This document shows, in pieces, positions 17,001 through 64,000 of a stretch of 64,000 nucleotides of DNA. The stretch covers positions 56,725 to 120,724 of the IMG/VR virus record IMGVR_UViG_3300035695_000002; one strand, given 5' to 3'. The position numbers and the translations under genes are program-made. Below the pieces are notes generated by a model. That model saw only the letters and a program-made list of their open reading frames with translations. It did no database searches and was not told the origin of the DNA. The DNA is from a virus. The stretch's first letter is position 1; each line of letters opens with the position of its first letter.

Positions 17001-20000
17001 ATAAGCAGGGGTAGCTTCTAATACAACATCACCGTTCTTAAATCCTTCAAAAGCATCTACGATATTGTCATTCACCTCTCTTTTCAACACCTCATCCCTA
17101 AGAGTATCACTCACTTTATCAAAATCCTTAATAATGAAATCACCATCTTTGGTTTGTTCAATACCCATCTTTGTTAATAGGGAATTATATCCATTATCAA
17201 TAATGGCTTCCAATAAATGCTGATTGTTCTTTATTTCCTTATATAGCTCAGATTTGGCTAATTTCTGGGTTTCTGAAAGTTTATTCCATTCATTGAGCCT
17301 TTGTGTGAAATTAGCTCCTTTACTGAAGTCTACAGGAACTCCAGCCTCCATATAGTCCATTGTAACTAATTTGGTGATTTGAGATCCTCTAGTAACCAAA
17401 GGTTCATCCTTGGAAGGAACCTCTGATTGTATGGAAATAATACCATGAGAGACGTTTACAAGAGCCTCATAAGGAGATTCATTGAATGTTCCATCTTCAT
17501 TATAAATAGGATTAAGTCCTTCAGAACCCACTTTTCTACCGGAAGCAAATACTGTATAATCAATGTTCTCTTTCTGCATTTTATTATAATGCTTAATAGC
17601 ATTACTCTCAGGATTGAGAGAATGAACTATTCTAAAGGAAAGAGGATAGAGAGCAAACTTATCTAATACAACATCATTATAAGGTTTCCCGTTGAGTTTA
17701 TTTCCAAACACAATAGGTTTAATAGGAGTGTATGCACTCTTTACTTCAGGATTGATTCCGTCTAAAAGTGTTCTTTCTTCTTTAGATAGATCAATTCCTT
17801 TAATATCTTTCTCATAAGCAATGTCATATCTGTATTGCTTTTCTTCATCATCATTCCATTCTCCAGCTTTGATTCTAAACCACCTGTAGGCTTTATGTGA
17901 GATTATACCTCCACCGTCAGTTTCTTCAAAGTTCCCATAATCCTTTAAATCGGAGGTAGAAACAACATCTTCAGATGTAACTGTTCTGAAATAATCCCTA
18001 GTCATATCTGTATATCCCACATCCCCTTTATCATACCCCTTATTCCATATCTTATTAAGAGCTTTGTTGAAATTAGGAGAATTGTTAATTATAGCCTGTC
18101 TAGGAGAAAGAGCATTCTTAATACGCTTTAATTCATCAGAATATTGATAGGGGTCAGAATATAAGAGCTTATGAAACTCTATGTTATTGACAATATAATT
18201 GATTGTAATAGCACTTAATTGTCTATTTAATACAGGTTCTGTAATAACTTCTCCATCAGAGAAAGACAGATTTTGCACTTTGATTCCCTCACTATCCTTT
18301 TTAATAATGTCATATTTGGAGAGAAGTTCTCTTAAATTAACAGTTTCCTGCTTAATAAAAGCGTCAACTGCCTTATTTATCTGGGACTGATATTTTGCAT
18401 ACACTTCCTCAGTAGACAATTTTTCCTTTAATATAGACTTCTGTAACTCTTCTCCAAGTATGGACTTTAAGAACCTTAGATCTTCACTATCCCTCTTTTT
18501 AGCTACAGGTCTATCCTCCCTAGAAAGCTCTAATTCTGACAGAAAATACCCTTTGAATATATCATGTACTTTAGACATTCCTGATAATAGACTATCTGAA
18601 GATATATGATTTCCCATATAGGTCATCCATTCCATAGAAGCATCTCCAGGTACAAGATTGTAATAATATCCTTTAGAATTAAGATTGATTTCCTGTACAA
18701 GTCTTTCTTTGTATGTCAATTTGGCAGATTGTTTCTTCTTACCATTAGACGTATTGACAGTACCATCAGCATACCCAGGATGCATTAATTGCTCTCCTCC
18801 TTTGATTCTGTTTCCTGTAACAGGATTAAATATCTTATCCAAAATCACACTTCCTTGTGCAAAACTATCCGTAAGAAGATATTCGTAAGGAGTGTTGACT
18901 AGTTCGTTTTTATTGTTTATCTGGGAAAGAACATCAAATAAATCACTTGTAGGATTGGTTCCTATGAAAGTTTGTGTACGTTCTCCTTTTACATTAAAGA
19001 ATGTACTATCGAACTCTGGATTGTCAATAGAAGCCCTAATCAATGAAAGCTGCATAAGCCTTCCTTTGATGTTAAGCACTTTTCTACTCACTGTGGCTAT
19101 TTTCTCAGCTTCTTGAATACTCTTCTTTATACCAGCAACTGCTTCTATAAAGGATTGTTTTTTATCAGCAGAAAGTTTAGAAAGCTCTGAAGTCTTAAAC
19201 TCTATACCTAGGGATTTAAGGAAATTTATCCTATTTTGATCAGTAGATAGGGACACAGATTTTACACCAGAAGGTTTCCCTATATAAGCTTTCTCCTTGT
19301 TAGAATACTCAAAATAAGGATTTTTACTCTTTACTGTCTTTATAATAGAATTACCATAATCTGCACTCACTTGTCTAGCAGCACTAGATAGATTGCTATC
19401 TCCTACTTCTACATCTCCATTATCAAATATGTAAACATTCTTTACATCAGGAGACTGTTTTTTGAATGTTCTCCAGAAAGCAGCTAGAAGCTGTCCATCA
19501 TGTACTTCTGATATTTCCGATAGGTCAGAGGTGTTTTTTGTAAGTCTATTATATAGAGTTTTATAGTTATTATCATCCTCTGACATTTCCTTAATTCTAT
19601 CCATCATCTCATCGATGCTTCTGGAAGTATGGACATTATTCATAATAGCCATAAACACTTGACTAGAAGGAAGGAGTCTCACTCCTCCTATAGAAGACCT
19701 AACTAAATGATTTTTACTATCAACTATCGGAATAGTGGAAAGAAGAAGTTTTACAGCACTATTGGCTTTCTTGAATACATCTATTTTAGTAGCCTCCTGA
19801 TAATCCCCTTTCTTGGAAGCATCTTCGTCCTTAAGTACTAAATCATCATTTTCATCAAATTCAATAGAATAGGTTTTAAGGTATTCTTGGTGTTTTTTCA
19901 CCAATTCATCCCATTCACCAGATTGTTCAGCTATCTTTGTAAACCTAGTTTTAAGTCTATCGTACAGTTCTTTCTTATGTATATCAGGAATAGAGAATAA

Positions 20001-23000
20001 GCTCTTATTATCCTTAATAAGATCTGTAAGTGTTAAATAGGTCATATGCTGCATAATGTCATTCACCTTATCAGCAGGAATGTTTTTTATGCGAAATTCA
20101 CTGAAATTATCAGTGTATGCTTGTTCTACATCAATAAACCCTTCTTTAGCAAAGGAGAGCTGTTGTTCATGAGGAATGAATTGTTTATAGTATCCTCTAC
20201 CTATTTTATCAAATAACTTGTCTGTATTAGAAACAGCAGTATTTCCAGTGAAAAATGACTTTATAAAGTCTACTAAGTCACGGAATAGTTTTATAATAAA
20301 ATGTGTATTTTTAGCTTTTGGAGGAGATTTCTTATTAAGAACATAGTCTCTAAATTCTTCAGCCAATTGTTCTTTTATTTGAAAATCTGTAGCTTCAGAA
20401 TAATTAACAGTTTTGCCTGTAGGTCTGTCTACAAAACTACCTTCCCTGTCTTTGAATTCTTTTATTACATTAGCTTGTTCCTGAGGATCGGAGAACATTT
20501 TCCACACAGCTTCAAATACTTCATGGTAGATGGTTCCTAATTCTGCATCCTTAGATATGTAAATAGCTCCATTTTTTAACATACCCCAAGCTTGCTGGCC
20601 ATTAGTAGCCTGAATTACATTCTTCACTCTATATACAGGAAGGTTAGGGAAGTTAGCTTTTAACCACTTCTGCATCTCTTCCCAATTCTCAGGTTCAAAA
20701 TACTTAAGAGGTTCTTCAAGTTTAACTCTTAAGGCTACTTCCTCCCCATCTAAATCATCTATAGACCATTCCATTTTCTCCTCTATAGGAGATGTTGTTA
20801 TAATGGCTGGTTTCCTTTCAGGAGAAGGTGTTTCTGTTGATTTGTTAAATATAGACTTCTTAGGAGCCTTTTCCTCTGTTATTTGTGGAGCTATTGCTTG
20901 TTTAATTTTGCCTTCTATAGATGCTTTAGCTACATCTTTGTCATATTTCTCTGTAAGAGATTTGCGTATTTCTTCTACATCCCCTCCTGTTAATATGGTG
21001 ATTTTACCTTCAGAGGTGGCTTTGAAGTTTATATTTTTCCCTTCTGGGGAGGTATAAGTGTTAACTGTTTTACCATCCAGAATATAACCTTTCTGAGAAA
21101 CCTCCTTTTTAGCACTAGGAGCAACAACAGCTTTCTTGGGAGCATTTTCATAATTATCAGCACTATCTGTTAATGTGAAATATATACCATGTCTATTAAC
21201 GGCTCCTTCACCCACAGGTTTCATATTGGTGGAAAGAGGGAGTTCTGAAGATTTTCTTCCTTCCTTGGACAATAGATAGGTTTGATAATTAGGCCATGAT
21301 TTAGCCTCTATAACTCCTTCTCTGGAAATAGAGGTTATTTCCTCATAAGGAGTATTCCATAACTCAGGCTTATCAGTAAGCCCTGAATTAATATTATTAT
21401 ACATCCCTTCTAATAAGGAGATGATTTCCTCTTTACTCCCTTCTATAGAAGAAGGTGTGAAAGGATAAGTTTTATCTTTTCCTGATATAGATAGAGAGAA
21501 TTCCCCATTAATAGTACTAAACCATACACTGTTAAATCCTGCTGCATTCTTAGGAGATCCCCAATAAATGATGGATTTAAGCCAATTCATCAATCTTTTA
21601 GATTGTTCTGATTGAGCATCTTGGTTATTAAATATATCAATAGCTAATTGATGAATAGCTTCATATATTGTATTTACTTCATTCTTAGTAAGTTTTCTAT
21701 TGTCAAGCTTTACATATCCATTAGGAAGATTAAGGAAAGGACGTCCTAGAGGACTAGTGAAAGATACACTTCCTTTCTCTACAGTGGTGTCTGTGGTAGG
21801 AATGAATATTACAGGTTTTTCAGATAGGTCAGAAGACTTTATTAGTCCAGCTTCCTCTACACTAGTTTTAGCTGTATAGTCTCTTTTATTATTCCCTTTC
21901 TCATCTAAATTGGTAACATATTCAGGTATGCCGAAAGAAGCAGAAACAGGATGTTCATTTAAAGAAGGTTTCTCTAAAGCATTCTTTACCCATTCTGCGT
22001 AACGCATTTTGTAGTATTCTATCTGTTCAGGAGTAGTGTCCTTTCTAAACATAGTACCACCACCAAATTCCTTACTCCATTCTAATTTAGGATCAGGCAT
22101 CACTTGAACAATAATATTATCGAATGATGGGAATTCTAACTTTTTACCATCTTCTCCTACAGGAACACCATTCTCCACCATTACCAAAGCAATGATTTTA
22201 GAAGCATCTGCATCAGAATCTCCTTTTAAGAAATTAGTGAGTCCTTTAAGTCCTAATTCCTCTTCATTTTTAGATGTCAATAAAACACCTTTGATTTTCT
22301 GTCTATTAGGAAAACTATCTAAATTAGCTCCAAACTTATTACTTCTTATATGATGAGGAAGTGTAGAACTACCAGCAGGTTTTGTAGAAGTTACTACAGC
22401 CACATCAGTTTTCTTTGGTTTTGGTTCATAGGAAGATTCAGAATTCACTGTCTGAACTCCAGGATCTGCACTTCCTAATATCTCTTTTTGAAGCTTTTTA
22501 CTATTCTTTATTTTCTCTTCTTCTTCCTTTTGTCTAATAAATTTATCTGCTACTTCTTGAAATTTAGCAAGAATTAAATCTTTTGCTTTCAGTTCTTTTT
22601 CAGCATCACTTAGTTTAGTTTGAAGTCCTTTTAATTCTGTAACAAGTTCGTTTAATGTACGCTCATTAGGAGTAATGTCCAAGTCCTCTACTTGAGATAC
22701 AAGTTCTTCCACCTTAGAAAGCATATCCTTATAATCAGGATTTTTCTTAAGGAAGTTAGGATTTGACTTTAAAAAGTCCACCCACTCTTGTCCAATAGCT
22801 AAAGGAGCTTTAGGATAGAGAGTTTTGAAATCACTAATTATATCTCTTAAATATGCTACAGCAGAATCTAATGCTCCTTTTACCCCATCTACAAGTTTGG
22901 AAAGAGTATTTATTTCCTTACCTGTTTCCAAAATAAGAGATTCTAAGTTGTTTCTCTGTTCCTTTAATTCTTCTAAAAAGTCTTTAGTGTTAGTAGGAAG

Positions 23001-26000
23001 TTCATCTATATTCTGAGCCAAATCTGCTATATAGGCAGAGTTTAATTCAGTCTCATCTCTCTCTGCTTCTAATGCTGATATTTCTTCTTTTATTTGATCT
23101 TGAAGTCTAGAAAGCTTCATAGCAGCTTCTAAAGCTCTTCTACTAGAAGCTTTAAATCTGTTCTTTTTAGTAAATTGACTATCTTTTATTTTATCTTGTA
23201 AAGCAGATAAATCTTTTGTAATATTCTCTAATTGAGCCTGTTTCTCAGAAATAAGCTCTTTTGTTTTTTCATGTCTCTTGCTTACTTCATCAAATAGTTC
23301 TGTAAGAATCTTAAGTCTGCCTGTTCTTTTTTCAGTAATTCTATTATCTTGTTCTGTAGAAAATTCATCTAAAGATTTTTGTTGAGCAGGAGAAAGCTCC
23401 CCCACCTTACTTATCATAGGAAGAGAATATCCTTTTTTAGGGACAAATTGATCACCTGTTACTTCAATGGACTTTATTCTACCTTTAGCATCTTTATATA
23501 CAAAATTAAGGGTTTTATCTTTAGAGGAGTATTCCAGTCTACCCTTCTGTTTCTTCCCCTTACCAAAGTTGAATTCAAATATGGAGTTTATATTATCCAT
23601 ATAGAACTTAGCCTTCTTGTTATTTACAGTATCACTTACCTTACCAAGTTTATAGTCTTCTAATACAGCCTTGGATACATTTTTAACATTACCTTTCCCA
23701 TCACTAACTTTTATAGTACCGTCTTCATTTTCTCCAAGTATAGTAATACGAGGGAACCTATATACCTCTTTCCCAGATTTATCATATTCTACAGTTTTAC
23801 CCAAGAAATATTCTTCTCCAACAATTACCTCTTCCTCACCATCTTTGGTTTTAACTAATATTTTCTCTGGTTCTACCCCTGGAGTTGCAGTAGGAATCTG
23901 AACATCTTTATATGATTCTGGAGTTTTCTTAATATCATTATAGTCTTTAAGAAAAGACTGTCTCCTTAAAGCTAATTCTGATATATCATCTAAATCTCTT
24001 ACAAGTTCTTCTTTCTCATCATCGTTTATATCAAAAGATTCTATTTGAGAAAGGGCTTCATTGTATTTTTCAGACCTACCTTTTGCTACATCATTAATAA
24101 CATCAGAGGTTACAACACCTTTTAAAGCTAAAGAATTAGCTATTTGAGGAATACGCTTATCATAATCAGCCACTTTAGAGGCAGCATACACCATCTTATC
24201 TATCACCTCTGGAGAATAGACAGGTTTTCCATCCTTTACAAGATTACCATATCTTATTTGAAGAGATTCATAAAGCCCTTTTACATGTTTAGCTACTTCT
24301 TCTAAATTAGAAAGTCTTTGTAAATATGCCAATCTGGAGTCCCCCTGTAGCACTTTACCATCTGCTTGTAATTGAGAAAATCCTTCATTTGTAGAAGCTA
24401 GATGTTTATATTCATTTATATCACTTTGAACTAAATCAAATCTACCATACTTTATCCTAGGAGATAGATAGTTGATAATATAGTCTTGTTCCTTGTCTTT
24501 AGCTTCAAGAACATCACCTCTTCTTAAAGAAGCTTCTCTTTCTTCTTGAAGAACAGTACCTCTATTAACAGCATCTACTGTAGCTTTGGTAAAATCAGAA
24601 AGGTTATATCCATTGAATTTAGCAATAGCGTCTGCTGTATTTGCTTTTATTTGTCTATTCTCTTGGAACTTCCCTCTACCTAACATAAGAGCACCAGAGA
24701 GTCCTCCTATAAGAACATTCTCCATTCCCTCATTAGTACCAATAGTTTGTTTAGCTCCTTGAAATAAGGATTCTAACCAATCAGTGGACTTATTATCATA
24801 CTTCTTATTGTAATAATCGTTAGTTCCTTGGGAAATAGCATATTGAGCACCTTCTTCAAATCCTTCAGATGTGGAGAAAGTGTATGGTCTGATACCATTT
24901 ATAGAGGATAGTATTCTACCTGTTCTAGTGGAAGCTTCTTGTTTAATGAACTTACCTGTAGCATCTTTAGTAATATCTCCTATTTCCTTAGTGGTGGTGG
25001 AAGCAATTAAGCTTCTCTCTGCTTTATCAGAAGATCCTAGGATTTTAGGGAATTGTATATAATTTGTAGCTGTTAAAAGAGCTGTGTTTAATAAAAAAGA
25101 ACTGTTTCCTACACCATCAGAAGCAGCGTTTATAGCATCTAAATCTGAACCTATAGGTCCCCATCCATCATGGGAGTCTTTATATTCTTGAATTTTTGTA
25201 TTCCTGAAATCATTAAGATTGTAATAGGCTTCAAATCCGGCTTCCCCTGTTGTAGCCAATCCAGCTACTAATACTCTTTGTCCTTTGTTAAGAGTATTAT
25301 ATGTACCAAGGAACTTGTTGGACAAACTCTCTACTTTTCCATAAGTTTCAGCGGCCTTATCAGCAGCCATTAAGGCTTCTTCTGTAGCAGCTAATGTTTC
25401 ACCAGCCTTTCCTACAGAGAACAATTTAGCCATTCCTGGGAGAGCTGATAGAGATTTTAATCCAGAAGCATATACACCTCCTGAAAGGTAGGCTCCTGCT
25501 GCAAATCCCATATTCTTAATAATACCATCCCATAAGAAATTAGCTGTTAAAAGCTTTTTAGGAGAATACCAATTAGCATTCTTTTCTCCGTCTGTATAGT
25601 AATTAGGAAGAGTGTTTTCTAAGTTTTTATTGAATTCGTCTAAGGCTCTATTGAACTCATTATCATAAAATGAGGCTGCTCTACCATCCGTTAGAGCTTT
25701 TCCTAGCCCTATAACAGTACCTGCTGTAGATTGAAGGAATGTAGTTCCTGTTAAAGAAAGACCTTTCCCTACAGCATTTACCATTTTAGAAGGCCATCCC
25801 TGACCTAAAGCATAAGCATCTTCATTATTATAGTCTCCAGGTACATATTGATCGAATCTATTAGAGGATACTTCTTTAAGACTTCTAGGAATAGAACCAC
25901 CTGTAATCTTTCCATCTCCACCACTAGAAATAGAAAATAACTTATTCTCCAATGCACTTAGTGCAGAGGGTGTAGGATTTCCTCCTTCACTTGGAAGCAA

Positions 26001-26114
26001 AGAAGTATCAAATCCTTTATAAGGAAGATTTGGGAGATTTACGTCTGTAGGAGGAGAATATGTCTGAGAAGCATCTTGTAATGCTTGTTCATTCAATAAT
26101 GGTGTATCAGTCAT
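14022..26114 (-). CDS. Virion-packaged DNA-dependent RNA polymerase polyprotein (4030 aa), crAss/phi14:2 type
   Basis: RIPTQKQNSI...GSDFDIDKLF catalytic loop at about 16571-16595. Zincin-like YHEVFE at about 20515. Size and position fit the family. Confidence 0.88.
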   Translation of the reverse strand: MTDTPLLNEQALQDASQTYSPPTDVNLPNLPYKGFDTSLLPSEGGNPTPSALSALENKLFSISSGGDGKITGGSIPRSLKEVSSNRFDQYVPGDYNNEDAYALGQGWPSKMVNAVGKGLSLTGTTFLQSTAGTVIGLGKALTDGRAASFYDNEFNRALDEFNKNLENTLPNYYTDGEKNANWYSPKKLLTANFLWDGIIKNMGFAAGAYLSGGVYASGLKSLSALPGMAKLFSVGKAGETLAATEEALMAADKAAETYGKVESLSNKFLGTYNTLNKGQRVLVAGLATTGEAGFEAYYNLNDFRNTKIQEYKDSHDGWGPIGSDLDAINAASDGVGNSSFLLNTALLTATNYIQFPKILGSSDKAERSLIASTTTKEIGDITKDATGKFIKQEASTRTGRILSSINGIRPYTFSTSEGFEEGAQYAISQGTNDYYNKKYDNKSTDWLESLFQGAKQTIGTNEGMENVLIGGLSGALMLGRGKFQENRQIKANTADAIAKFNGYNLSDFTKATVDAVNRGTVLQEEREASLRRGDVLEAKDKEQDYIINYLSPRIKYGRFDLVQSDINEYKHLASTNEGFSQLQADGKVLQGDSRLAYLQRLSNLEEVAKHVKGLYESLQIRYGNLVKDGKPVYSPEVIDKMVYAASKVADYDKRIPQIANSLALKGVVTSDVINDVAKGRSEKYNEALSQIESFDINDDEKEELVRDLDDISELALRRQSFLKDYNDIKKTPESYKDVQIPTATPGVEPEKILVKTKDGEEEVIVGEEYFLGKTVEYDKSGKEVYRFPRITILGENEDGTIKVSDGKGNVKNVSKAVLEDYKLGKVSDTVNNKKAKFYMDNINSIFEFNFGKGKKQKGRLEYSSKDKTLNFVYKDAKGRIKSIEVTGDQFVPKKGYSLPMISKVGELSPAQQKSLDEFSTEQDNRITEKRTGRLKILTELFDEVSKRHEKTKELISEKQAQLENITKDLSALQDKIKDSQFTKKNRFKASSRRALEAAMKLSRLQDQIKEEISALEAERDETELNSAYIADLAQNIDELPTNTKDFLEELKEQRNNLESLILETGKEINTLSKLVDGVKGALDSAVAYLRDIISDFKTLYPKAPLAIGQEWVDFLKSNPNFLKKNPDYKDMLSKVEELVSQVEDLDITPNERTLNELVTELKGLQTKLSDAEKELKAKDLILAKFQEVADKFIRQKEEEEKIKNSKKLQKEILGSADPGVQTVNSESSYEPKPKKTDVAVVTSTKPAGSSTLPHHIRSNKFGANLDSFPNRQKIKGVLLTSKNEEELGLKGLTNFLKGDSDADASKIIALVMVENGVPVGEDGKKLEFPSFDNIIVQVMPDPKLEWSKEFGGGTMFRKDTTPEQIEYYKMRYAEWVKNALEKPSLNEHPVSASFGIPEYVTNLDEKGNNKRDYTAKTSVEEAGLIKSSDLSEKPVIFIPTTDTTVEKGSVSFTSPLGRPFLNLPNGYVKLDNRKLTKNEVNTIYEAIHQLAIDIFNNQDAQSEQSKRLMNWLKSIIYWGSPKNAAGFNSVWFSTINGEFSLSISGKDKTYPFTPSSIEGSKEEIISLLEGMYNNINSGLTDKPELWNTPYEEITSISREGVIEAKSWPNYQTYLLSKEGRKSSELPLSTNMKPVGEGAVNRHGIYFTLTDSADNYENAPKKAVVAPSAKKEVSQKGYILDGKTVNTYTSPEGKNINFKATSEGKITILTGGDVEEIRKSLTEKYDKDVAKASIEGKIKQAIAPQITEEKAPKKSIFNKSTETPSPERKPAIITTSPIEEKMEWSIDDLDGEEVALRVKLEEPLKYFEPENWEEMQKWLKANFPNLPVYRVKNVIQATNGQQAWGMLKNGAIYISKDAELGTIYHEVFEAVWKMFSDPQEQANVIKEFKDREGSFVDRPTGKTVNYSEATDFQIKEQLAEEFRDYVLNKKSPPKAKNTHFIIKLFRDLVDFIKSFFTGNTAVSNTDKLFDKIGRGYYKQFIPHEQQLSFAKEGFIDVEQAYTDNFSEFRIKNIPADKVNDIMQHMTYLTLTDLIKDNKSLFSIPDIHKKELYDRLKTRFTKIAEQSGEWDELVKKHQEYLKTYSIEFDENDDLVLKDEDASKKGDYQEATKIDVFKKANSAVKLLLSTIPIVDSKNHLVRSSIGGVRLLPSSQVFMAIMNNVHTSRSIDEMMDRIKEMSEDDNNYKTLYNRLTKNTSDLSEISEVHDGQLLAAFWRTFKKQSPDVKNVYIFDNGDVEVGDSNLSSAARQVSADYGNSIIKTVKSKNPYFEYSNKEKAYIGKPSGVKSVSLSTDQNRINFLKSLGIEFKTSELSKLSADKKQSFIEAVAGIKKSIQEAEKIATVSRKVLNIKGRLMQLSLIRASIDNPEFDSTFFNVKGERTQTFIGTNPTSDLFDVLSQINNKNELVNTPYEYLLTDSFAQGSVILDKIFNPVTGNRIKGGEQLMHPGYADGTVNTSNGKKKQSAKLTYKERLVQEINLNSKGYYYNLVPGDASMEWMTYMGNHISSDSLLSGMSKVHDIFKGYFLSELELSREDRPVAKKRDSEDLRFLKSILGEELQKSILKEKLSTEEVYAKYQSQINKAVDAFIKQETVNLRELLSKYDIIKKDSEGIKVQNLSFSDGEVITEPVLNRQLSAITINYIVNNIEFHKLLYSDPYQYSDELKRIKNALSPRQAIINNSPNFNKALNKIWNKGYDKGDVGYTDMTRDYFRTVTSEDVVSTSDLKDYGNFEETDGGGIISHKAYRWFRIKAGEWNDDEEKQYRYDIAYEKDIKGIDLSKEERTLLDGINPEVKSAYTPIKPIVFGNKLNGKPYNDVVLDKFALYPLSFRIVHSLNPESNAIKHYNKMQKENIDYTVFASGRKVGSEGLNPIYNEDGTFNESPYEALVNVSHGIISIQSEVPSKDEPLVTRGSQITKLVTMDYMEAGVPVDFSKGANFTQRLNEWNKLSETQKLAKSELYKEIKNNQHLLEAIIDNGYNSLLTKMGIEQTKDGDFIIKDFDKVSDTLRDEVLKREVNDNIVDAFEGFKNGDVVLEATPAYQQIRNILYSIADRNVISPKISGGQKVQIPSTLLESVKAKKEKGAYTSDFLRFYKDEDGKRTCEIMVGRWFNSPLSDSELLNYLNKTKEGQSLLSGVAYRIPTQKQNSIDSFVIKQFLPKEFGDSVVIPSELVRKVGSDFDIDKLFIYFKNTYTSLKGNIKQIPFYGYGEAAKAKLGELYDQGEFLKKEDRNRVNNWIKTRALDERQDVVNKLATAIFGQGAFDQEVIDDFLEANSDENLKERIVNQIYKKSLENEYIQSLQNLISHPDNFENLVKPNSADQLKALAKDITKKLGFAEFTYDDPKNMLNRHFMSRLRQAFVSGKYAIGIAAVNQTNHSLNQRQPIYIDQERWGLVSEEDKFWLSGGTFKKEDVAIKFKNYNKIDVNDKSVPTLSMIKNAKGENISDIIGQFIDGYVDISKGPWIMELGASPNVASTWLFLVKLGVPIKDVAYFMNQPIIRDYLDSIENAGYVWLFIEDFVEDIKDSPKYKVAPSEFNKIKEIPSNLGETVGKEKLSPQEKAQQQFILNEFLKYAKMANHQFLVTQGANWDTANFNDPYLVFKKNEQFKKAQSTIISSVNDLVKGSFIGKLSEKIYDVRDAFSTILTSDKPNVREVIEDVLRPYVDMNDRDFVKLAQKAVNDLFDWAVQNDRKLNNQIQKILLSDDNTAKEVSDFVTKVRKDENHPLYNNQIVKLVTPHFSEKNEGVNNLKIKNKDNKVYDQNQMIYAFSELRQYLKVQDSPLYGSLVRLAVLQSGLSNSPISFTSLLPYEDFKNIYNKTLSILEEYPNLADFKVLDVFQRNNWNNDDLVPQRKAKWKQNKNGEWKYNNNMKFIGYKRVSAAIAKKEIPQLVKINTKSREAENDVIVYTWETGTKAEKDKLKKQGDYSYIKRGLFKKVKQYGTPYTIDFSIGDTLISDYVYKAINAWGDSHSSDGVYFSANEFYNVAKPSIIDNGFIKVEKEASDESILSYFESPTKEVVEDEDDSNSNLPNCS

Positions 26115-50406: not shown

Positions 50407-50481
50407 TAGCGTTGTCTTGGATTCGAACCAAGGATTTCAAGCTTATGAGGCTTGCGAGATAGTCCACTTCTCTAACCCGCT
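50407..50481 (-). tRNA. tRNA-Met (CAT), isolated
   Basis: AGCGGGTTAGAGAAGTGG...CAAGC-CTCATAA-GCTTG...GGTTCGAATCC cloverleaf. Confidence 0.85.
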
Positions 50482-60791: not shown

Positions 60792-61143
60792 GTAGGATGG
60801 AGATTTGTAACACAACATCCTTATCAAAATCTAGGAGAAATTGAGGATTCACCTTTATCTTTCCACTTTCCTTTACAAGGATGTTCACCTTCTTAAGCTT
60901 AGAAATGATGTTATTAATTGTAGGGGAAGATGACTTATAGAGGGAACAAAACTCTTCTCTATTGGTAGAATATGATATATTCCCTTTAATAGCTGTAAAG
61001 GCTATTAATTGTATCTCCCTTTCTGTCAATTTTGTATTACTAATAGCCGACAATAAACTGTAATATCTCTGGGCTATTGATAAACTATCCTTCTCTGAAA
61101 GCTTAATTTTCTGTAAAAGTGTTTTTCTATCCTTGGTTTCCAT
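60784..61143 (-). CDS. Winged-helix-like DNA-binding protein (probable start METKDRK)
   Basis: LTEREIQL...SSPTINNIISKLKKVNILVK...KVNP. Confidence 0.6.
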   Translation of the reverse strand: METKDRKTLLQKIKLSEKDSLSIAQRYYSLLSAISNTKLTEREIQLIAFTAIKGNISYSTNREEFCSLYKSSSPTINNIISKLKKVNILVKESGKIKVNPQFLLDFDKDVVLQISILHG

Positions 61144-61188: not shown

Positions 61189-61227
61189 GAATAATTATAA
61201 ATAAATGCCATATTATGTCAAGAATTC

Positions 61228-61332: not shown

Positions 61333-61347
61333 ATTGTTTAAATTTAG

Positions 61348-61418
61348 AATCAGGAGTGAGGTTCGAACTCACGTAATAGGTTTTGCAGACCTATGTTTAA
61401 CCACTCAACCATCCTGAT
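61348..61418 (-). tRNA. tRNA-Cys (GCA)
   Basis: Anticodon arm TAGGT-CTGCAAA-ACCTA; T-loop TTCGAAC. Confidence 0.9.
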
Positions 61419-61579
61419 ATTGCTTATCTGGAATTTCAAAGCCCTATATATTCCCAAGACCCTGCCACCCATCCCCAAAGTTACTGCCTTTTATGGGAGG
61501 ATTGCAAATAACATTCTAAGTTATTTTCTAACTATTTGATAATGAGGAGGAATAATTTCAAGTGAACACTTGACAAAAG

Positions 61580-61651
61580 TGCAGTAAGTGAGACTTGAAC
61601 TCACAGCCCTTGGTTTGGAAGACCAATGCTCTACCTTGGAGCTATTACTGC
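61580..61651 (-). tRNA. tRNA-Gly (TCC)
   Basis: TTGGT-CTTCCAA-ACCAA. Confidence 0.9.
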
Positions 61652-61656
61652 ATATG

Positions 61657-61727
61657 TACCCAATGATGGAATCAAACCACCGCTACATGGATGTAAACCA
61701 AGTGCGCTATCATTACGCCAATTGGGC
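61657..61727 (-). tRNA. tRNA-Val (TAC)
   Basis: CTTGG-TTTACAT-CCATG. Confidence 0.85.
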
Positions 61728-61731
61728 ATTG

Positions 61732-61804
61732 TGGAACCATCTAGTAACGATCTAGAATTTCTCCCTCTTCAGGGGAGCACATATACCATATATGTTATAG
61801 TTCC
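61732..61804 (-). tRNA. tRNA-Phe (GAA), atypical T-loop
   Basis: CTCCC-CTGAAGA-GGGAG; T-loop ATCGTTA. Confidence 0.85.
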
Positions 61805-61863
61805 TGATATGGAGCCAAGGGGCAGTGCTCCCACTGTAAGTTCCCTTTCAACTTGGCATTTAG

Positions 61864-61934
61864 ATGCGAAGAGGGGAGTCGAACCCCTACGGTGAGGATA
61901 TGAGCCTCATGATCTACCATTAATCTACCTCGCA
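61864..61934 (-). tRNA. tRNA-Met (CAT), initiator-like
   Basis: TGCGAGG acceptor stem; TGAGG-CTCATAT-CCTCA. Confidence 0.85.
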
Positions 61935-61940
61935 ATATTG

Positions 61941-62013
61941 TTGTGATATTAGGAATCGAACCTAAAACCTCCACCTTATCAGAGTGTTGCGCTGCCAGTT
62001 GCGCCATATCACA
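61941..62013 (-). tRNA. tRNA-Ile (GAT)
   Basis: CACT-CTGATAA-GGTG. Confidence 0.9.
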
Positions 62014-62018
62014 ATAAG

Positions 62019-62089
62019 TTCTGCCACAGGGAATCGAACCCTGGTCTGAAAGTTAAAAGCTTCCAGCTCTACCATTGAGCTATGACAGA
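62019..62089 (-). tRNA. tRNA-Lys (TTT)
   Basis: GGAAG-CTTTTAA-CTTTC. Confidence 0.9.
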
Positions 62090-62166
62090 ATAAATCTTGT
62101 CATAGTCTTTCTTATCTGTTTCCATAATATTTTAACTGAGTGACATCAATGTCCTTCAGTTGATAG

Positions 62167-62238
62167 TTGACCCTAGCAGTACCGATCTGCTGACCATCTC
62201 ATTATGAGTGAGGTGCTCCACCATTGAGCTAAGGGTCG
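62167..62238 (-). tRNA. tRNA with CAT anticodon, probably Ile2 (lysidine, reads ATA); Met not excluded
   Basis: GACCCTTAGCTCAATGG...CTCA-CTCATAA-TGAG resembles bacterial Ile2; T-loop ATCGGTA. Confidence 0.75.
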
Positions 62239-62241
62239 ATG

Positions 62242-62313
62242 TAGTCCTACTGAGATTCGAACTCAGACCAAAAGATTAGAAGTCTCTTATTCTTCCAATT
62301 AAACTATAGAACC
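62242..62313 (-). tRNA. tRNA-Arg (TCT)
   Basis: AGAGA-CTTCTAA-TCTTT. Confidence 0.9.
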
Positions 62314-62350
62314 TTGTTCTACAGTTGTCTCCTTATGTTTACTTTCATAG

Positions 62351-62424
62351 ATCCCTAGGTCAGAGTTGAACTGACAGCCTCCAGTTTACAAAACTATTGC
62401 TCCACCAATTGAGCTACGTAGGGA
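62351..62424 (-). tRNA. tRNA-Thr (TGT)
   Basis: TAGT-TTTGTAA-ACTG; irregular acceptor stem. Confidence 0.85.
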
Positions 62425-62430
62425 ATATTG

Positions 62431-62499
62431 CACGCCCCCATAGAATCGAACTATGTCCTACGGTTTTGGAGACCGTCTGGCTACCTTAGCCTGAAGCAT
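62431..62499 (-). tRNA. tRNA-Trp (CCA)
   Basis: ACGGT-CTCCAAA-ACCGT. Confidence 0.85.
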
Positions 62500-62506
62500 G
62501 TGTATG

Positions 62507-62577
62507 AGGGAAGTGATAGAATCGAACTACCATATAGTGATTAACAGTCACTTGTTCTGCCATTGAACTAACAACCC
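62507..62577 (-). tRNA. tRNA-Asn (GTT)
   Basis: AGTGA-CTGTTAA-TCACT. Confidence 0.9.
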
Positions 62578-62583
62578 TTTAAG

Positions 62584-62656
62584 CAGTCTTGAAGGGATTT
62601 GAACCCTCTCCGTACCCATAGACAGTGGGACATCTTAACCATTTGACCTCAAGACT
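62584..62656 (-). tRNA. tRNA-Asp (GTC)
   Basis: CCCA-CTGTCTA-TGGG. Confidence 0.88.
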
Positions 62657-62659
62657 ATG

Positions 62660-62733
62660 TGGAAAGGTTGGGGCTTCGAACCCCAGACTCCTGAATGCAA
62701 ATCAGGTGTGATAGCCAGCTTCACCAAACCCCC
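62660..62733 (-). tRNA. tRNA-Ala (TGC)
   Basis: CCTGA-TTTGCAT-TCAGG. Confidence 0.88.
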
Positions 62734-62735
62734 AT

Positions 62736-62767
62736 AAAACAAAAAAGACTCCTTTTTGGGGAGCCTT
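62736..62767 (-). terminator. Attenuator-type intrinsic terminator directly upstream of tRNA block B
   Basis: AAGGCTCC-CCAAAAA-GGAGTCTT-TTTTGTTTT, ending 2-3 nt before tRNA-Ala. Confidence 0.85.
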
Positions 62768-62790
62768 ATTAACCTATTAGGTTATATCTT

Positions 62791-62877
62791 TTATTGGCTC
62801 CAACAATACACTCCCACCTTACCACAATCTCTTGTCGCAAACATGGTGAATATAATATTAAACCAATTCCTTTTCAT
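62791..62877 (-). CDS. Leader peptide B (28 aa, MKRNWFNIIFTMFATRDCGKVGVYCWSQ)
   Basis: Translated by hand. Codons match the 14 downstream tRNAs. The 3' end carries GGAGCC, complementary to the terminator 5' arm GGCTCC. Confidence 0.85.
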   Translation of the reverse strand: MKRNWFNIIFTMFATRDCGKVGVYCWSQ

Positions 62878-62898
62878 ATTATTCTATTTAAACTTCTG

Positions 62899-62971
62899 TA
62901 CTCCCAAGGGGCTATGATCCCCTGTTTTAACATTGAAAGTGTTATGTCCTAGCCAATTAGACGATGGGAGC
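62899..62971 (-). tRNA. tRNA-Glu (TTC), atypical T-loop
   Basis: TAACA-CTTTCAA-TGTTA; T-loop ATCATAG. Confidence 0.85.
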
Positions 62972-63019
62972 ATATTGCTCCTCACTCTCTATTTCACTAT
63001 TTTGGACTATGTCTTTCAT
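62957..63019 (-). CDS. Leader peptide E (20 aa, MKDIVQNSEIESEEQYAPIV), reading into tRNA-Glu
   Basis: Translated by hand. Four Glu codons in a six-codon stretch; the stop codon lies inside the tRNA-Glu D arm. Confidence 0.65.
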   Translation of the reverse strand: MKDIVQNSEIESEEQYAPIV

Positions 63020-63026
63020 GGGAATA

Positions 63027-63058
63027 CAAACCTAGTAAATAAAATACATAATTCCTAA
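63027..63058 (-). promoter_or_regulatory. Internal Bacteroidota-type promoter for leader E, tRNA-Glu and leader B
   Basis: TAGGTTTG (-7 element) 7 nt upstream of the ATG at 63019; TTAG at the -33 spacing. Confidence 0.6.
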
Positions 63059-63079
63059 TATTTATCAAGTTATTTTTAG

Positions 63080-63160
63080 TTGTATAGGCAGGAATCGAAC
63101 CTACATAGCCTAAGCGGTGGTTTTACAGACCCTTGATTTAGCCAATTTACCATCTATACA
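63080..63160 (-). tRNA. tRNA-Tyr (GTA)
   Basis: GGT-CTGTAAA-ACC; long variable arm. Confidence 0.88.
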
Positions 63161-63166
63161 ATATAG

Positions 63167-63251
63167 AAGAGAGTAGGAGATTTGAACTTCTGGAGCTGTT
63201 ACACCCTTTTGTTTAGCAAACAAACACAATAAGCCACTCTGTCAACTCTCT
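63167..63251 (-). tRNA. tRNA-Ser (GCT)
   Basis: TTTGT-TTGCTAA-ACAAA; long variable arm. Confidence 0.88.
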
Positions 63252-63255
63252 GTAG

Positions 63256-63342
63256 AAGAGGGTGTGGGATTCAAACCCACGGAACTTTTACATCCTCTGG
63301 TTTTCAAGACCAGTGCAATAAATCAGACTCTACCAACCCTCT
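63256..63342 (-). tRNA. tRNA-Ser (TGA)
   Basis: CTGGT-CTTGAAA-ACCAG; long variable arm. Confidence 0.9.
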
Positions 63343-63347
63343 TTATG

Positions 63348-63435
63348 TATCCCTAGAAGGCATCGAACCTTCACACTACTATTATTTCGCTTTAGATTTT
63401 AAGTCTAACGTGTCTGCCAATTTCACCATAGGGAC
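63348..63435 (-). tRNA. tRNA-Leu (TAA)
   Basis: TTAGA-CTTAAAA-TCTAA; long variable arm. Confidence 0.9.
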
Positions 63436-63438
63436 ATG

Positions 63439-63513
63439 TACTTCAGGTGGAATTCGAATCCACAAGCCCCTGATTCTAAATCAGAGAGGTTTACCATTTT
63501 CCTTCACTGAAGC
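63439..63513 (-). tRNA. tRNA-Leu (TAG), short variable loop
   Basis: TCTGA-TTTAGAA-TCAGG. Confidence 0.85.
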
Positions 63514-63519
63514 ATATAG

Positions 63520-63591
63520 TCTTTTCTTAAGGATTTGAACCTTAATTGCAGAGTTCGTAGCCCTGAGTCCTTCCATTTAAACGAAGAAAAG
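63520..63591 (-). tRNA. tRNA-Arg (ACG)
   Basis: CAGGG-CTACGAA-CTCTG. Confidence 0.9.
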
Positions 63592-63596
63592 AAATA

Positions 63597-63667
63597 GGTG
63601 TCTGATGGGAATTGACCCCACACATCTTTGATTCACAGTCAAAGGCTCTACATTAAGCTACAGACAC
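63597..63667 (-). tRNA. tRNA-His (GTG)
   Basis: TTTGA-CTGTGAA-TCAAA; C73 discriminator. Confidence 0.88.
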
Positions 63668-63669
63668 AG

Positions 63670-63741
63670 TTTTAATATTGGGATTCGAACCCAAACTACC
63701 AGATTCAAAATCCGAGGTGCTAACCGTTACACCATATTAAA
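63670..63741 (-). tRNA. tRNA-Gln (TTG)
   Basis: TCGGA-TTTTGAA-TCTGG. Confidence 0.9.
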
Positions 63742-63743
63742 AG

Positions 63744-63819
63744 TCTAGATGGCAGGATTTGAACCTGCGTAATCCTGCTTCCAAGGCAGGCTAGATAAAC
63801 CTAACTCCTATACATCTAG
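63744..63819 (-). tRNA. tRNA-Pro (TGG)
   Basis: CCTGC-CTTGGAA-GCAGG. Confidence 0.9.
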
Positions 63820-63852
63820 AAAATAAAAAACCCCTCTTTTTGGGAGGGGTCT
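63820..63852 (-). terminator. Attenuator-type intrinsic terminator directly upstream of tRNA block A
   Basis: GACCCCTC-CCAAAAA-GAGGGGTT-TTTTATTTT, abutting tRNA-Pro. Confidence 0.88.
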
Positions 63853-63875
63853 ATGCTTTAAAAAGTTGTTCTGAA

Positions 63876-63962
63876 TCAACTATAATCAAACACAAATATC
63901 CCCTCACCTCCTAGATAACTAGGGAGCGAATGCTGTTGTGAAGGGCGTAAGTATTGTTTCAT
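63876..63962 (-). CDS. Leader peptide A (28 aa, MKQYLRPSQQHSLPSYLGGEGIFVFDYS)
   Basis: Translated by hand. Codons 3-17 match the nine downstream tRNAs. Contains GAGGGG, complementary to the terminator arm CCCCTC. Confidence 0.85.
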   Translation of the reverse strand: MKQYLRPSQQHSLPSYLGGEGIFVFDYS

Positions 63963-63967
63963 AAAGG

Positions 63968-63999
63968 CAAATATATGTAAAAGGATTGACATTTCCAAA
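63968..63999 (-). promoter_or_regulatory. Bacteroidota-type promoter of the tRNA array (leaderless transcript predicted)
   Basis: TTTG-N20-TATATTTG, then CCTTT and the ATG of leader A. Confidence 0.8.
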
Positions 64000-64000
64000 T

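Follow-up and report, generated by a model that had tools for sequence, protein, structure and literature searches.

Leader ORF A and its tRNA block

The window analysed here (the whole 64,000-nt stretch of phage DNA) carries on its minus strand a tRNA array whose first block of nine genes, block A, is headed by a short open reading frame, leader ORF A (Table 1). The nine downstream tRNAs are real. ARAGORN found eight of them at default settings, and Tyr-GTA (63079-63160) only at a relaxed threshold, with 24.4 bits against the Rfam tRNA model, whose gathering score is 29. The relaxed search gave 26 calls, from which two plus-strand calls overlapping minus-strand tRNAs were dropped, and it was the only one to detect Trp-CCA of block B. 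The end of the window is also the end of the contig, which closes into a circular map through a 127-nt assembly overlap, and the upstream DNA continues in L002. The upstream neighbour gene is divergent and no co-directional gene lies upstream, so that a terminator at this place has nothing else to terminate.

Leader ORF A is co-directional with the tRNA block and ends 57 nt before tRNA-Pro. It encodes the 28-aa peptide MKQYLRPSQQHSLPSYLGGEGIFVFDYS, and its codons 3-17 read CAA TAC TTA CGC CCT TCA CAA CAG CAT TCG CTC CCT AGT TAT CTA. All 15 of these codons (15/15) fall within the boxes of the nine downstream tRNAs, each of which (together seven amino acids) is sampled once to three times. Both the 28-aa ORF and this list of codons had been reported by the initial annotation and were found where it had placed them, on the minus strand; its claim that all nine tRNAs are sampled was borne out by the codon count. 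The other two frames across the same span have 10/28 and 7/28 codons of this set (set A), with stops. The frame is open further upstream to an ATG and a TTG, which would give 38 and 40 aa; since this extension is out of frame in two of five relatives, the conserved start is that at 63962. Codons 18-26 are block-B codons, so a shortage of block-B tRNAs would stall the ribosome on segment 2 and favour termination ahead of block A.

Table 1. Features of the tRNA array and its leaders (positions within the window).
Feature	Position	Strand	Description
Upstream promoter hexamer TTGGAA	63993..63998	minus	TTGGAA-17-TATATT, 9/12; labelled as containing TTTG of the -33 element
TATATTTG box	63968..63975	minus	TAnnTTTG, Bacteroidota -7 element, 5 nt before the ATG; overlaps TATATT -10-like hexamer
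Leader ORF A	63876..63962	minus	ATG 63962 to TGA 63876; 28 codons + TGA, predicted leaderless
Matched run	63912..63956	minus	codons 3-17, all nine block-A tRNAs sampled
Segment 1 (GCCCTTCAC)	63938..63946	minus	codons 6-9; pairs with segment 2 (ribosome-at-stop fold)
Inner hairpin CCTAG-TTAT-CTAGG	63910..63923	minus
Segment 2, antiterminator 5' strand	63888..63908	minus	core GAGGGG at 63900-63905
Small hairpin containing TGA stop	63864..63881	minus
Segment 3, terminator 5' arm	63842..63858	minus	core CCCCTC at 63844-63849; common to antiterminator and terminator
Segment 4 (GAGGGG) + U tract	63820..63836	minus	tract ends at first base of tRNA-Pro
Block A	63079..63819	minus	Pro-TGG, Gln-TTG, His-GTG, Arg-ACG, Leu-TAG, Leu-TAA, Ser-TGA, Ser-GCT, Tyr-GTA
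Unit E	62957..63034	minus	TAGGTTTG box + Glu-rich 20-codon ORF, ATG 63019
Leader ORF B	62791..62877	minus	28 codons; codons 1-23 sample all 14 block-B tRNA classes
Terminator B	62745..62767	minus	adjoins tRNA-Ala; 5' arm GGCTCC complementary to GGAGCC at ORF B end
Block B	61347..62733	minus	Ala, Asp, Asn, Trp, Thr, Arg-TCT, CAT, Lys, Ile-GAT, CAT, Phe, Val, Gly, Cys

The leader was compared across six distinct orthologues, namely this phage (G000) and five relatives (L064, L066, L067, L070 and L071). L064 and L068 are identical and were counted once; L065, in which the array is absent, and L069, a 1,177-nt fragment that reaches only 1 nt past the match on its upstream side, were left out. A TAnnTTTG box precedes the ATG by 4-5 nt in 6/6 orthologues, and in Flavobacterium promoters 4-5 nt is the reported spacing from box to start site, according to the available part of that study (PMC6847099). 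With the start site predicted at or next to the ATG, as in the earlier claim, the mRNA would be leaderless. Leaderless mRNAs are a minority (5.5%) in one flavobacterium, as given in the portion of the source at hand. Enrichment of the box is weak: the window holds 97 matches to TAnnTTTG against 81 expected, and 97 was reached by 5/100 shuffles. The hexamer TTGGAA with its 17-nt spacer can also be read in L064, L066, L067 and L071; L070 has TTGGTT. Inspection of the stretch between the terminator and tRNA-Pro revealed no promoter box.

Two further units follow block A. The Glu-rich ORF of unit E extends 15 nt into tRNA-Glu (62898-62971), with no terminator, and Glu-rich ORFs occupy the equivalent place in L064, L067 and L071. 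Leader ORF B is a second 28-codon leader that may play the same role for the next 14 tRNAs. Its peptide is identical across 28 codons in L064; in L067 it is identical up to a divergent 3' end, and the earlier base changes are all synonymous.

Codon match and its conservation

The chance figure first put forward for the run in leader A, (26/61)^15 = 2.8e-6, is arithmetically correct. Calculated from the coding usage of this genome, p(set) is 0.294, and 15 set-A codons have a probability of 1e-8. We searched all six frames of the genome for comparable runs. There are three distinct set-A runs of at least 15 codons in the 120,597-bp unique genome, leader A among them. Seventy set-A runs of at least nine codons were listed (six frames, 120.6-kb genome), leader A appearing twice because of the circular wrap, and it is the only one to include all nine classes. 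Similarly, leader B alone covers all 14 classes among 73 set-B runs of at least 14 codons. The probability that 15 in-set codons span all nine classes is 0.024, and that 23 in-set codons span all 14 block-B classes, 0.0036. Block-B codons are absent from the 15-codon sensor run of leader A, as block-A codons are from the 23-codon run of leader B; the sensor sets of the two leaders are disjoint, each equal to its own block.

Leader ORF A is kept in 6/6 orthologues, with 23-30 codons and with stops in the other frames. The matched runs comprise 15, 14, 9 (+3 after one ATT), 16, 11 and 11 codons, and none of them misses any of the nine tRNAs; the ATT is the one out-of-set codon that interrupts the run of L066. 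In core columns 6-17 of the orthologue codon alignment, 26/27 distinct codon states belong to the set. Amino-acid changes in this core include P/S, S/L, Q/L and Q/H/Y, and indels are of whole codons. The C-terminal motif IFVF(D/N)YS is shared by three of the six leader A peptides. In L067 a 2-nt deletion shifts the 3' end of the ORF and the bases there are retained, so the 3' part is conserved as RNA and not as peptide. The relatives have their tRNAs in the same order over the part of the array that their contigs include, and the relative without the tRNA array also lacks the leader.

As a control, an automatic scan of the flanks of 14 unrelated tRNA-array loci found matched runs in 0/40, the best runs having 1-5 codons; one unrelated array, L059, was inspected by eye. 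Judging from the arrays examined, phage tRNA arrays therefore do not in general have a matched leader. The scan under-reports the family's own runs: its 70-nt gap rule splits block B of G000 into sub-blocks, and in L064 and L067 set A comes out too small because ARAGORN calls the Leu-TAG orthologue Ser(act).

Megablast of 62800-64000 against the phage collection gave no match, and probes for leader A and leader B each found just the one known relative. The exact terminator probe hit 10 loci, none with tRNAs, which were taken as chance. A leader 16-mer hit 36 loci, of which only L014 lies on the L064 contig; the other 35, uninspected, were taken as chance, as were three further loci hit by a degenerate Pro-Gln junction probe, with no tRNA at the match. 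A scan of genome contigs with the neighbour-protein alignment (A1, which took in 24 of 43 homologues) found no relative, hence no host or prophage lead.

Alternative pairings and folding models

The terminator hairpin of leader A spans 63852-63828, with a 9-bp stem followed by a U tract to 63820, and adjoins tRNA-Pro, as the terminator does in 5/6 orthologues. Segment 2 is a duplicate of the terminator's 3' arm, and its GAGGGG (63905-63900) pairs with CCCCTC (63849-63844) of segment 3; the 1:2 duplex was calculated at -12.3 kcal/mol. These elements agree in full with the architecture proposed earlier: segment 1 (63945-63938), inner hairpin (63923-63910), segment 2 (63907-63900), segment 3 (63849-63844) and a terminator formed by 3:4 pairing plus the U tract.

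Across the orthologues, the 2:3 core pairs in 36/36 cells, with one compensatory change (G-C in four sequences, A-U in two), and segment 1 varies in step with the core (CCCCTC or CCCTTC versus CCCCTT). This covariation is one event in six sequences, and 32/500 shuffles score equally high; the arms being runs of C and G, slid registers pair well too. Covariation of the terminator across clades was left uncounted because its stem register differs by one base between two clades. The terminator hairpin is missing from L070, which has GGAGCC in place of the GGGGGC of L071, and the switch is absent in this one of the six.

We modelled ribosome stalling thermodynamically, with a 30-nt mask for the ribosome. 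With this mask, 5/6 orthologues gave a terminator probability below 0.1 at some stall codon and of at least 0.8 with the ribosome at the stop. Dinucleotide shuffles showed a comparable switch in 3/150 cases for leader A and 4/150 for leader B. The masked-ribosome models agree with the earlier proposal that a stall in codons 3-17 masks segment 1 and, for the earlier codons, leaves segment 2 free. The range of permissive codons differs between models: in a model cut just past segment 3, leader A is permissive for stalls at codons 1-15, whereas in the full-length equilibrium model the terminator opens only for stalls at codons 8-12, covering three of the nine tRNAs. In the cut model, 2:3 pairing persists up to stall codons 15, 17, 16, 16, 12 and 12 in the six orthologues and is zero beyond, the matched run ending two codons after the last permissive stall in every one; the antiterminator is predicted to be allowed only for stalls inside the matched run.

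The cut model also favours the antiterminator in untranslated RNA, with P = 0.68 for this phage (G000) and a range of 0.68-1.0 across G000, L064, L066 and L067. The untranslated default may thus be read-through, unlike trp. For leader B the models are less uniform: no stall position in L064 brings the terminator down to 0.8 (30-nt mask model), and in G000 stalls at codons 7-17 leave segment 2 unfreed (cut model).

A putative attenuator and its alternatives

Every testable sequence-level prediction of the attenuator reading held. We consider it likely that leader A is a ribosome-mediated (leader-peptide) transcription attenuator that heads the nine-gene phage tRNA block and reports the supply of these tRNAs, since its regulatory codons are the very codons that they read. 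Transcription would begin at the ATG or right beside it, and a ribosome would trail the polymerase along the resulting leaderless mRNA. With all nine tRNAs plentiful, the ribosome would clear codons 3-17 and cover segment 2 as segment 3 emerges, so that 3:4 pairing would form and the polymerase would halt at the U tract, just ahead of tRNA-Pro. Were any of the nine scarce, the ribosome would stall in the matched run, covering segment 1 and leaving segment 2 free; 2:3 pairing would then block the terminator and block A would be transcribed. The new tRNAs would relieve the stall, closing a negative feedback loop. What the DNA itself shows is the ORF, its codon match, the alternative pairings and their conservation; where transcription starts, that the ORF is translated, which way the switch points and what physiological signal it answers to are inferred. 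The phage, on this evidence, probably makes the nine tRNAs only when ribosomes read their codons slowly.

The codons could report the block tRNAs and yet act on a different output, either processing or decay of the precursor, for instance through how accessible the leader-tRNA junction is to RNase P or RNase E, or Rho loading. This phage apparently has at least one further output, as the matched ORF of the Glu unit enters its tRNA without a terminator; L070 likewise retains the ORF without the hairpin, and the U tract of leader A ends at the RNase P site of tRNA-Pro. For leader A itself we regard such an output as unlikely, given the canonical hairpin and U tract in 5/6 orthologues, a segment 2 that copies the terminator's 3' arm exactly and shares in the compensatory change, and the rarity of the switch among shuffles. 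Less likely again is that the leader responds to the overall capacity for translation (ribosome availability, inhibitors, coupling) and not to particular tRNAs, the codon match being a by-product of a short ORF built of always-decodable codons. Any delay or absence of the ribosome gives read-through in the cut model, and a cellular tRNA operon is reportedly induced by translational stress, according to the accessible parts of two papers (PMC8421152, PMC10272220); a general sensor, however, needs no partition, and here the A and B runs are disjoint, equal to their own blocks and sample every class, coverage that chance gives with the low probabilities quoted above for 15 codons and nine classes and for 23 codons and 14 classes.

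A small functional peptide, with the hairpin an ordinary terminator or insulator and the tRNAs arising from unregulated leak-through, would account for the constancy of leader B (identical in L064, and differing in L067 only C-terminally, after synonymous changes) and for the C-terminus common to half of the leader A peptides. Leader A residues nevertheless change at most core positions with the codon class retained, the frame of L067 is shifted over conserved 3' bases, and a plain terminator set directly between the nine tRNA genes and their sole predicted promoter would just silence them; we find this reading improbable, lower in rank than a general sensor. Lastly, a C/T-rich stretch could read as set-A codons by chance beside an unrelated terminator. 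Set A is mostly CNN and TCN, which favours pyrimidine-rich segments, and the genome has two other set-A runs of at least 15 codons. Against this, the run exists in one frame only, is the sole one to cover all classes, is repeated with the complementary set at leader B, has been retained through codon-level turnover in five relatives and is absent from the 40 control flanks, making coincidence very unlikely.

A broader form of the attenuator reading, which we offer tentatively and would not yet favour, is a three-sensor tRNA homeostat. Units A (nine tRNAs), Glu and B (14 tRNAs) would each have a micro-ORF written in its own codons, the loss of any tRNA species would turn on the block that replaces it, and the 24 array tRNAs, for all 20 amino acids, would form a minimal complete decoding set; the trigger would serve counter-defence. 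tRNAs might be lost to host tRNA-cleaving defence nucleases or through phage-induced host shut-off, and the trigger would be tied directly to ribosome speed, with no protein sensor.

To our knowledge, the regulation of phage tRNA genes is largely unknown, and our literature search for codon-matched leader attenuators of such genes found no published case. If the attenuator reading is true, the phage gauges decoding speed per codon class and replenishes only what is short, leader-peptide attenuation extends from amino-acid supply to tRNA supply, and the locus provides a compact, naturally occurring sensor with several inputs for tRNA availability in SD-less Bacteroidota-type hosts. Such an arrangement would also explain the order of the array by codon class and its division into blocks. 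The purpose of phage tRNAs is itself debated, between codon compensation and replacement of tRNAs destroyed by host defences, as presented in the available sections of two sources (PMC10264068, PMC11555353).

Comparison with known systems

T-box RNAs bind one uncharged tRNA directly via a specifier codon and are untranslated. Leader A resembles them in being a leader RNA that would choose between terminator and antiterminator and report tRNA status; it differs in having an ORF with 15 matched codons, and a search of 62700-64000 gave no Rfam T-box match at E up to 10. Among Rfam families, Bacteroid-trp and Phe_leader are leader-peptide RNAs, the class proposed for leader A. Membership in either was ruled out, the scores being below the gathering thresholds: Phe_leader (RF01859) scored 22.1 and 19.2 bits against 55, matching only the two terminators, and Bacteroid-trp (RF01692) 23.1 bits against 49, on the opposite strand. 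Judging from the family name of RF01692, a leader-peptide mechanism has already been described for Bacteroidota.

Anabaena has a long trn operon that stays silent in standard culture and is induced by translational stress; it too is an accessory tRNA array expressed according to the state of translation, as far as the available text goes (PMC8421152, PMC10272220). It differs in being cellular and, to go by the paper's title, in its control by a transcriptional repressor protein, TrcR; that same portion of text makes no mention of a codon-matched leader ORF. In mycobacteria, leaderless polycysteine short ORFs are described, in the part of the source at hand, as cysteine-responsive attenuators (bioRxiv 10.1101/834739). 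Like leader A, such a leaderless short ORF heads a polycistronic transcript and its codon content tunes the downstream genes; these ORFs sense a single amino acid, precede cellular biosynthetic genes and belong to another phylum.

The closest architectural parallels are in the enterobacterial attenuators. Some, as trpL, hisL and pheL, respond to a single amino acid, and others are multivalent, as the leaders of thr (Thr, Ile) and ilvGMEDA (Ile, Leu, Val). As in this group, a short ORF lies between the (here predicted) promoter and the first gene, and its regulatory codons correspond to what the operon provides; an intrinsic terminator follows, whose 5' arm also belongs to the antiterminator, and the upstream strand that pairs with the antiterminator is inside the ORF. 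As with the thr and ilvGMEDA leaders, several species would be sensed at once. Unlike them, leader A would regulate tRNA genes and not enzymes, its product being the molecule that the sensor reads, and it samples nine tRNA species (seven amino acids) in place of runs of one to three amino acids. It is also predicted to be leaderless, lies in a phage, and its default state when untranslated may be read-through.

Codon content of leader A and its setting

We conclude that leader A, a 28-codon ORF followed by a terminator ahead of nine tRNA genes (block A), is probably a leader-peptide transcription attenuator that uses as regulatory codons the ones decoded by the tRNAs under its control. Block A is tightly packed, in the order Pro, Gln, His, Arg-ACG, Leu-TAG, Leu-TAA, Ser-TGA, Ser-GCT, Tyr, and is followed by tRNA-Glu and by 14 further genes, Ala to Cys (block B). 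ARAGORN predicted 22 array tRNAs with default settings; two relaxed calls bring the total to 24, enough for all 20 amino acids, and the array resembles a complete decoding set of minimal size.

Features of the tRNA array and its leaders (window positions)
Feature	Position	Strand	Remarks
Leader A ORF	ATG 63962 to TGA 63876	-	28 codons
Leader A terminator	63852-63828	-	9-bp hairpin; U tract reaches first base of tRNA-Pro (63819)
tRNA array	61347-63819	-	one tRNA per codon box, two with CAT anticodon
tRNA Tyr-GTA	63079-63160	-	ARAGORN, relaxed threshold only
Glu-rich ORF	62957-63034 (with box)	-	20 codons, four Glu; behind TAGGTTTG promoter box
Leader B ORF	62877-62791	-	exactly 28 codons; between tRNA-Glu and tRNA-Ala
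Leader B terminator	62767-62745	-	adjoins tRNA-Ala
tRNA Trp-CCA	62430-62499	-	ARAGORN, relaxed threshold only
18-codon ORF	62069-62125	-	three Lys and three Asp codons; ~21 nt into tRNA-Lys (62018-62089)
Lone third CAT-anticodon tRNA	50408-50480	-	Rfam match; missed by default ARAGORN

The initial annotation had spelled out codons 3-17 of leader A and claimed that all 15 fall in codon boxes read by the nine block A tRNAs (set A), with every one of the nine sampled. Codons and match (15/15) are exactly as claimed, and its coordinates for the pairing RNA segments are all correct. A scan of the unique genome (120,597 nt) in all six frames yields three separate stretches with 15 or more set A codons in a row, leader A among them. 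When the threshold is lowered to nine set A codons, 70 runs are listed, with leader A counted twice owing to the circular wrap, and no other run covers all nine tRNA classes. Given codon usage in the phage's genes, the probability that a codon belongs to set A is 0.294, and that of 15 such codons representing every one of the nine classes is 0.024. The remaining two frames of the stretch contain 10/28 and 7/28 set codons as well as stops; thus, the run is not explained by base composition alone. Pure chance is effectively excluded as its origin.

The virus record spans 120,724 nt, the window being its final 64 kb. Its first 127 nt are identical to its last 127 nt; we take this as an overlap left by assembling a circular genome, so that the sequence lying upstream of window position 64000 would resume at record base 128 (locus L002). 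The phage (G+C 31-38%) is a tailed virus, with terminase, portal and major head genes 3' of the tRNA array, also on the minus strand. Its late module has an uninterrupted ORF of 4,030 aa (14022-26114, minus strand), near ORFs of 1,864, 1,627 and 1,364 aa. Its genes are devoid of Shine-Dalgarno (SD) motifs: just 2/86 long ORFs have an SD core between -20 and -5 (genome background 0.14), and positions -5 to -3 are A-rich; this combination points to a Bacteroidota-type host.

Upstream of leader A there is a sigma-70-like TTGGAA-17-TATATT, and the box TATATTTG agrees with the -7 element of Bacteroidota promoters. A passage in PMC6847099 places this element at -12 to -5, accepting 4 or 5 nt to the start site. 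By this spacing rule, the first transcribed base would be the A of the ATG wherever the spacer is 4 nt (four leader A orthologues), and that A or the base before it where the spacer is 5 nt (two orthologues). A leaderless start is therefore plausible from the promoter signals; for Flavobacterium psychrophilum, a passage in PMC9723704 gives leaderless transcripts as 5.5% of mRNAs. Between the array end and the gene at 61143 lies a TTGACA-16-TATAAT (61194-61221, minus strand), whose 12/12 match is odd given the Bacteroidota-like look of the phage's other signals.

Leader and array in related phages

Relatives were found by scanning with the 131-aa product of the divergent neighbour gene, which has no family match and 43 homologues in the protein collection. 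Five distinct relatives bear the leader (L064, L066, L067, L070 and L071; L064 is identical to L068, shares a contig with L003 and was counted once), with neighbour proteins 56-80% identical. Block A order is the same in all five, as far as contigs extend; in L070 (minus strand), block A lacks Ser-GCT and only Gly and Cys tRNAs follow, tRNA-Glu and most of block B being missing. In 6/6 leaders, an ORF of 23-30 codons begins 4-5 nt after a TAnnTTTG box. The matched runs of consecutive in-set codons measure 15, 14, 9 (plus 3 after one ATT), 16, 11 and 11 codons, and each samples all nine tRNAs. The leader of the 131-aa gene (L002:215-336, plus strand) carries a GGGGAGT-GATGTCAACTCCCC hairpin and a AGGAGGGGTGG tract, located between the divergent promoters and kept in the phage and all five relatives.

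In L065, which is more distantly related, both the tRNA array and the leader are absent. At L065:4177-5390, an orthologue (54% identity) of the first gene 3' of the array (window 61143-60784) lies directly opposite the 131-aa gene. Since array and leaders are missing together, they move as one cassette, which occupies ~2.8 kb of the intergenic site between the 131-aa gene and the gene at 61143. None of 14 unrelated phage tRNA arrays examined had leaders of this type, so the device is lineage-specific, not universal.

Proposed RNA switch and alternative explanations

The leader RNA has four arms (segments 1-4) with alternative pairings 1:2, 2:3 (antiterminator) and 3:4 (terminator). Segment 2 (core GAGGGG) repeats the sequence of the terminator 3' arm and has two possible partners: CCCCTC in the 5' arm, and segment 1, located within codons 6-9. 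The 2:3 core is paired in 36/36 cells across six sequences. At one position four sequences have G-C and two have A-U, with segment 1 altered in step; however, this covariation is a single event, 32/500 shuffles score equally and slid registers pair too, so it is weak evidence, whereas the conservation is strong.

To mimic a stalled ribosome, 30 nt around the A site were kept unpaired; the models are equilibrium ones, with kinetics outside their scope. In the full-length model, a switch was scored when terminator probability fell below 0.1 at some stall codon and was at least 0.8 at the stop. Five of the six leader A orthologues and two of the three leader B copies (leader B precedes block B) switched; the terminator hairpin is gone from L070 leader A, and L064 leader B stayed closed at every stall position. 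Dinucleotide shuffles of the ORF region gave a comparable switch in 3/150 (A) and 4/150 (B).

A second model was cut just past segment 3, before segment 4 exists. In the six orthologues, the antiterminator formed for stalls no later than codon 15, 17, 16, 16, 12 and 12, and in each the matched run ends two codons past this limit; in leader B the last permissive stall is at codon 21, the final matched codon being 23. Matched codons thus occupy the stretch of the ORF in which a stall keeps segment 2 free. Unlike the trp paradigm, untranslated RNA favoured the antiterminator in four orthologues in this model.

In the full mechanism, which we consider probable, a ribosome stalled within the matched run would let the antiterminator form, block A would then be transcribed, and the newly made tRNAs would feed back on the stall. 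One main alternative is a functional peptide with a plain terminator. The leader A peptide is variable, with P/S, S/L, Q/L and Q/H/Y at core positions and three different two-codon insertions at one site. In core columns 6-17 of the six leaders, 26/27 distinct codon states are in-set, the chance that a random single-base change keeps a set codon in the set being 61%, and indels are whole codons. A 2-nt deletion in L067 shifts the frame across otherwise conserved 3' bases, so this part of leader A is conserved as RNA. The other main alternatives are a general sensor of translation capacity, and the same codon sensor with a different output, such as processing or decay.

Leader B, other micro-ORFs and known systems

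Leader B is, as far as its sequence tells, the same design repeated with a complementary codon set. Its codons 1-23 are all read by the 14 downstream tRNAs and sample all 14 classes, a coverage that no other of the genome's 73 set B runs with 14 or more codons attains. The terminator 5' arm GGCTCC is complementary to GGAGCC at the 3' end of the ORF. Leader B is almost base-identical in L064 and L067; an extra ORF of ~40 codons is inserted between tRNA-Glu and leader B (minus strand) in L064 alone. We found no promoter box belonging to leader B itself, so it would be translated within the array transcript. The Glu-rich ORF overlaps tRNA-Glu by 15 nt and has no terminator; Glu-rich ORFs occur at the equivalent site in L064, L067 and L071, the last with seven Glu codons. 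The 18-codon ORF may be a further micro-ORF of this type, inside block B.

The leader belongs to no Rfam family, the Rfam search gave no T-box match, and Phe_leader matched only below threshold, on the two terminators. A full-text literature search did not find an attenuator or leader peptide ahead of tRNA genes; the nearest regulated tRNA array among published ones encountered is the Anabaena trn operon (PMC8421152, PMC10272220), which, going by a paper title, is controlled by a repressor protein. Leader A itself shows the sequence-level hallmarks of leader-peptide attenuators. The thr and ilvGMEDA leaders are multivalent leader-peptide attenuators, and it is these that leader A resembles most closely.
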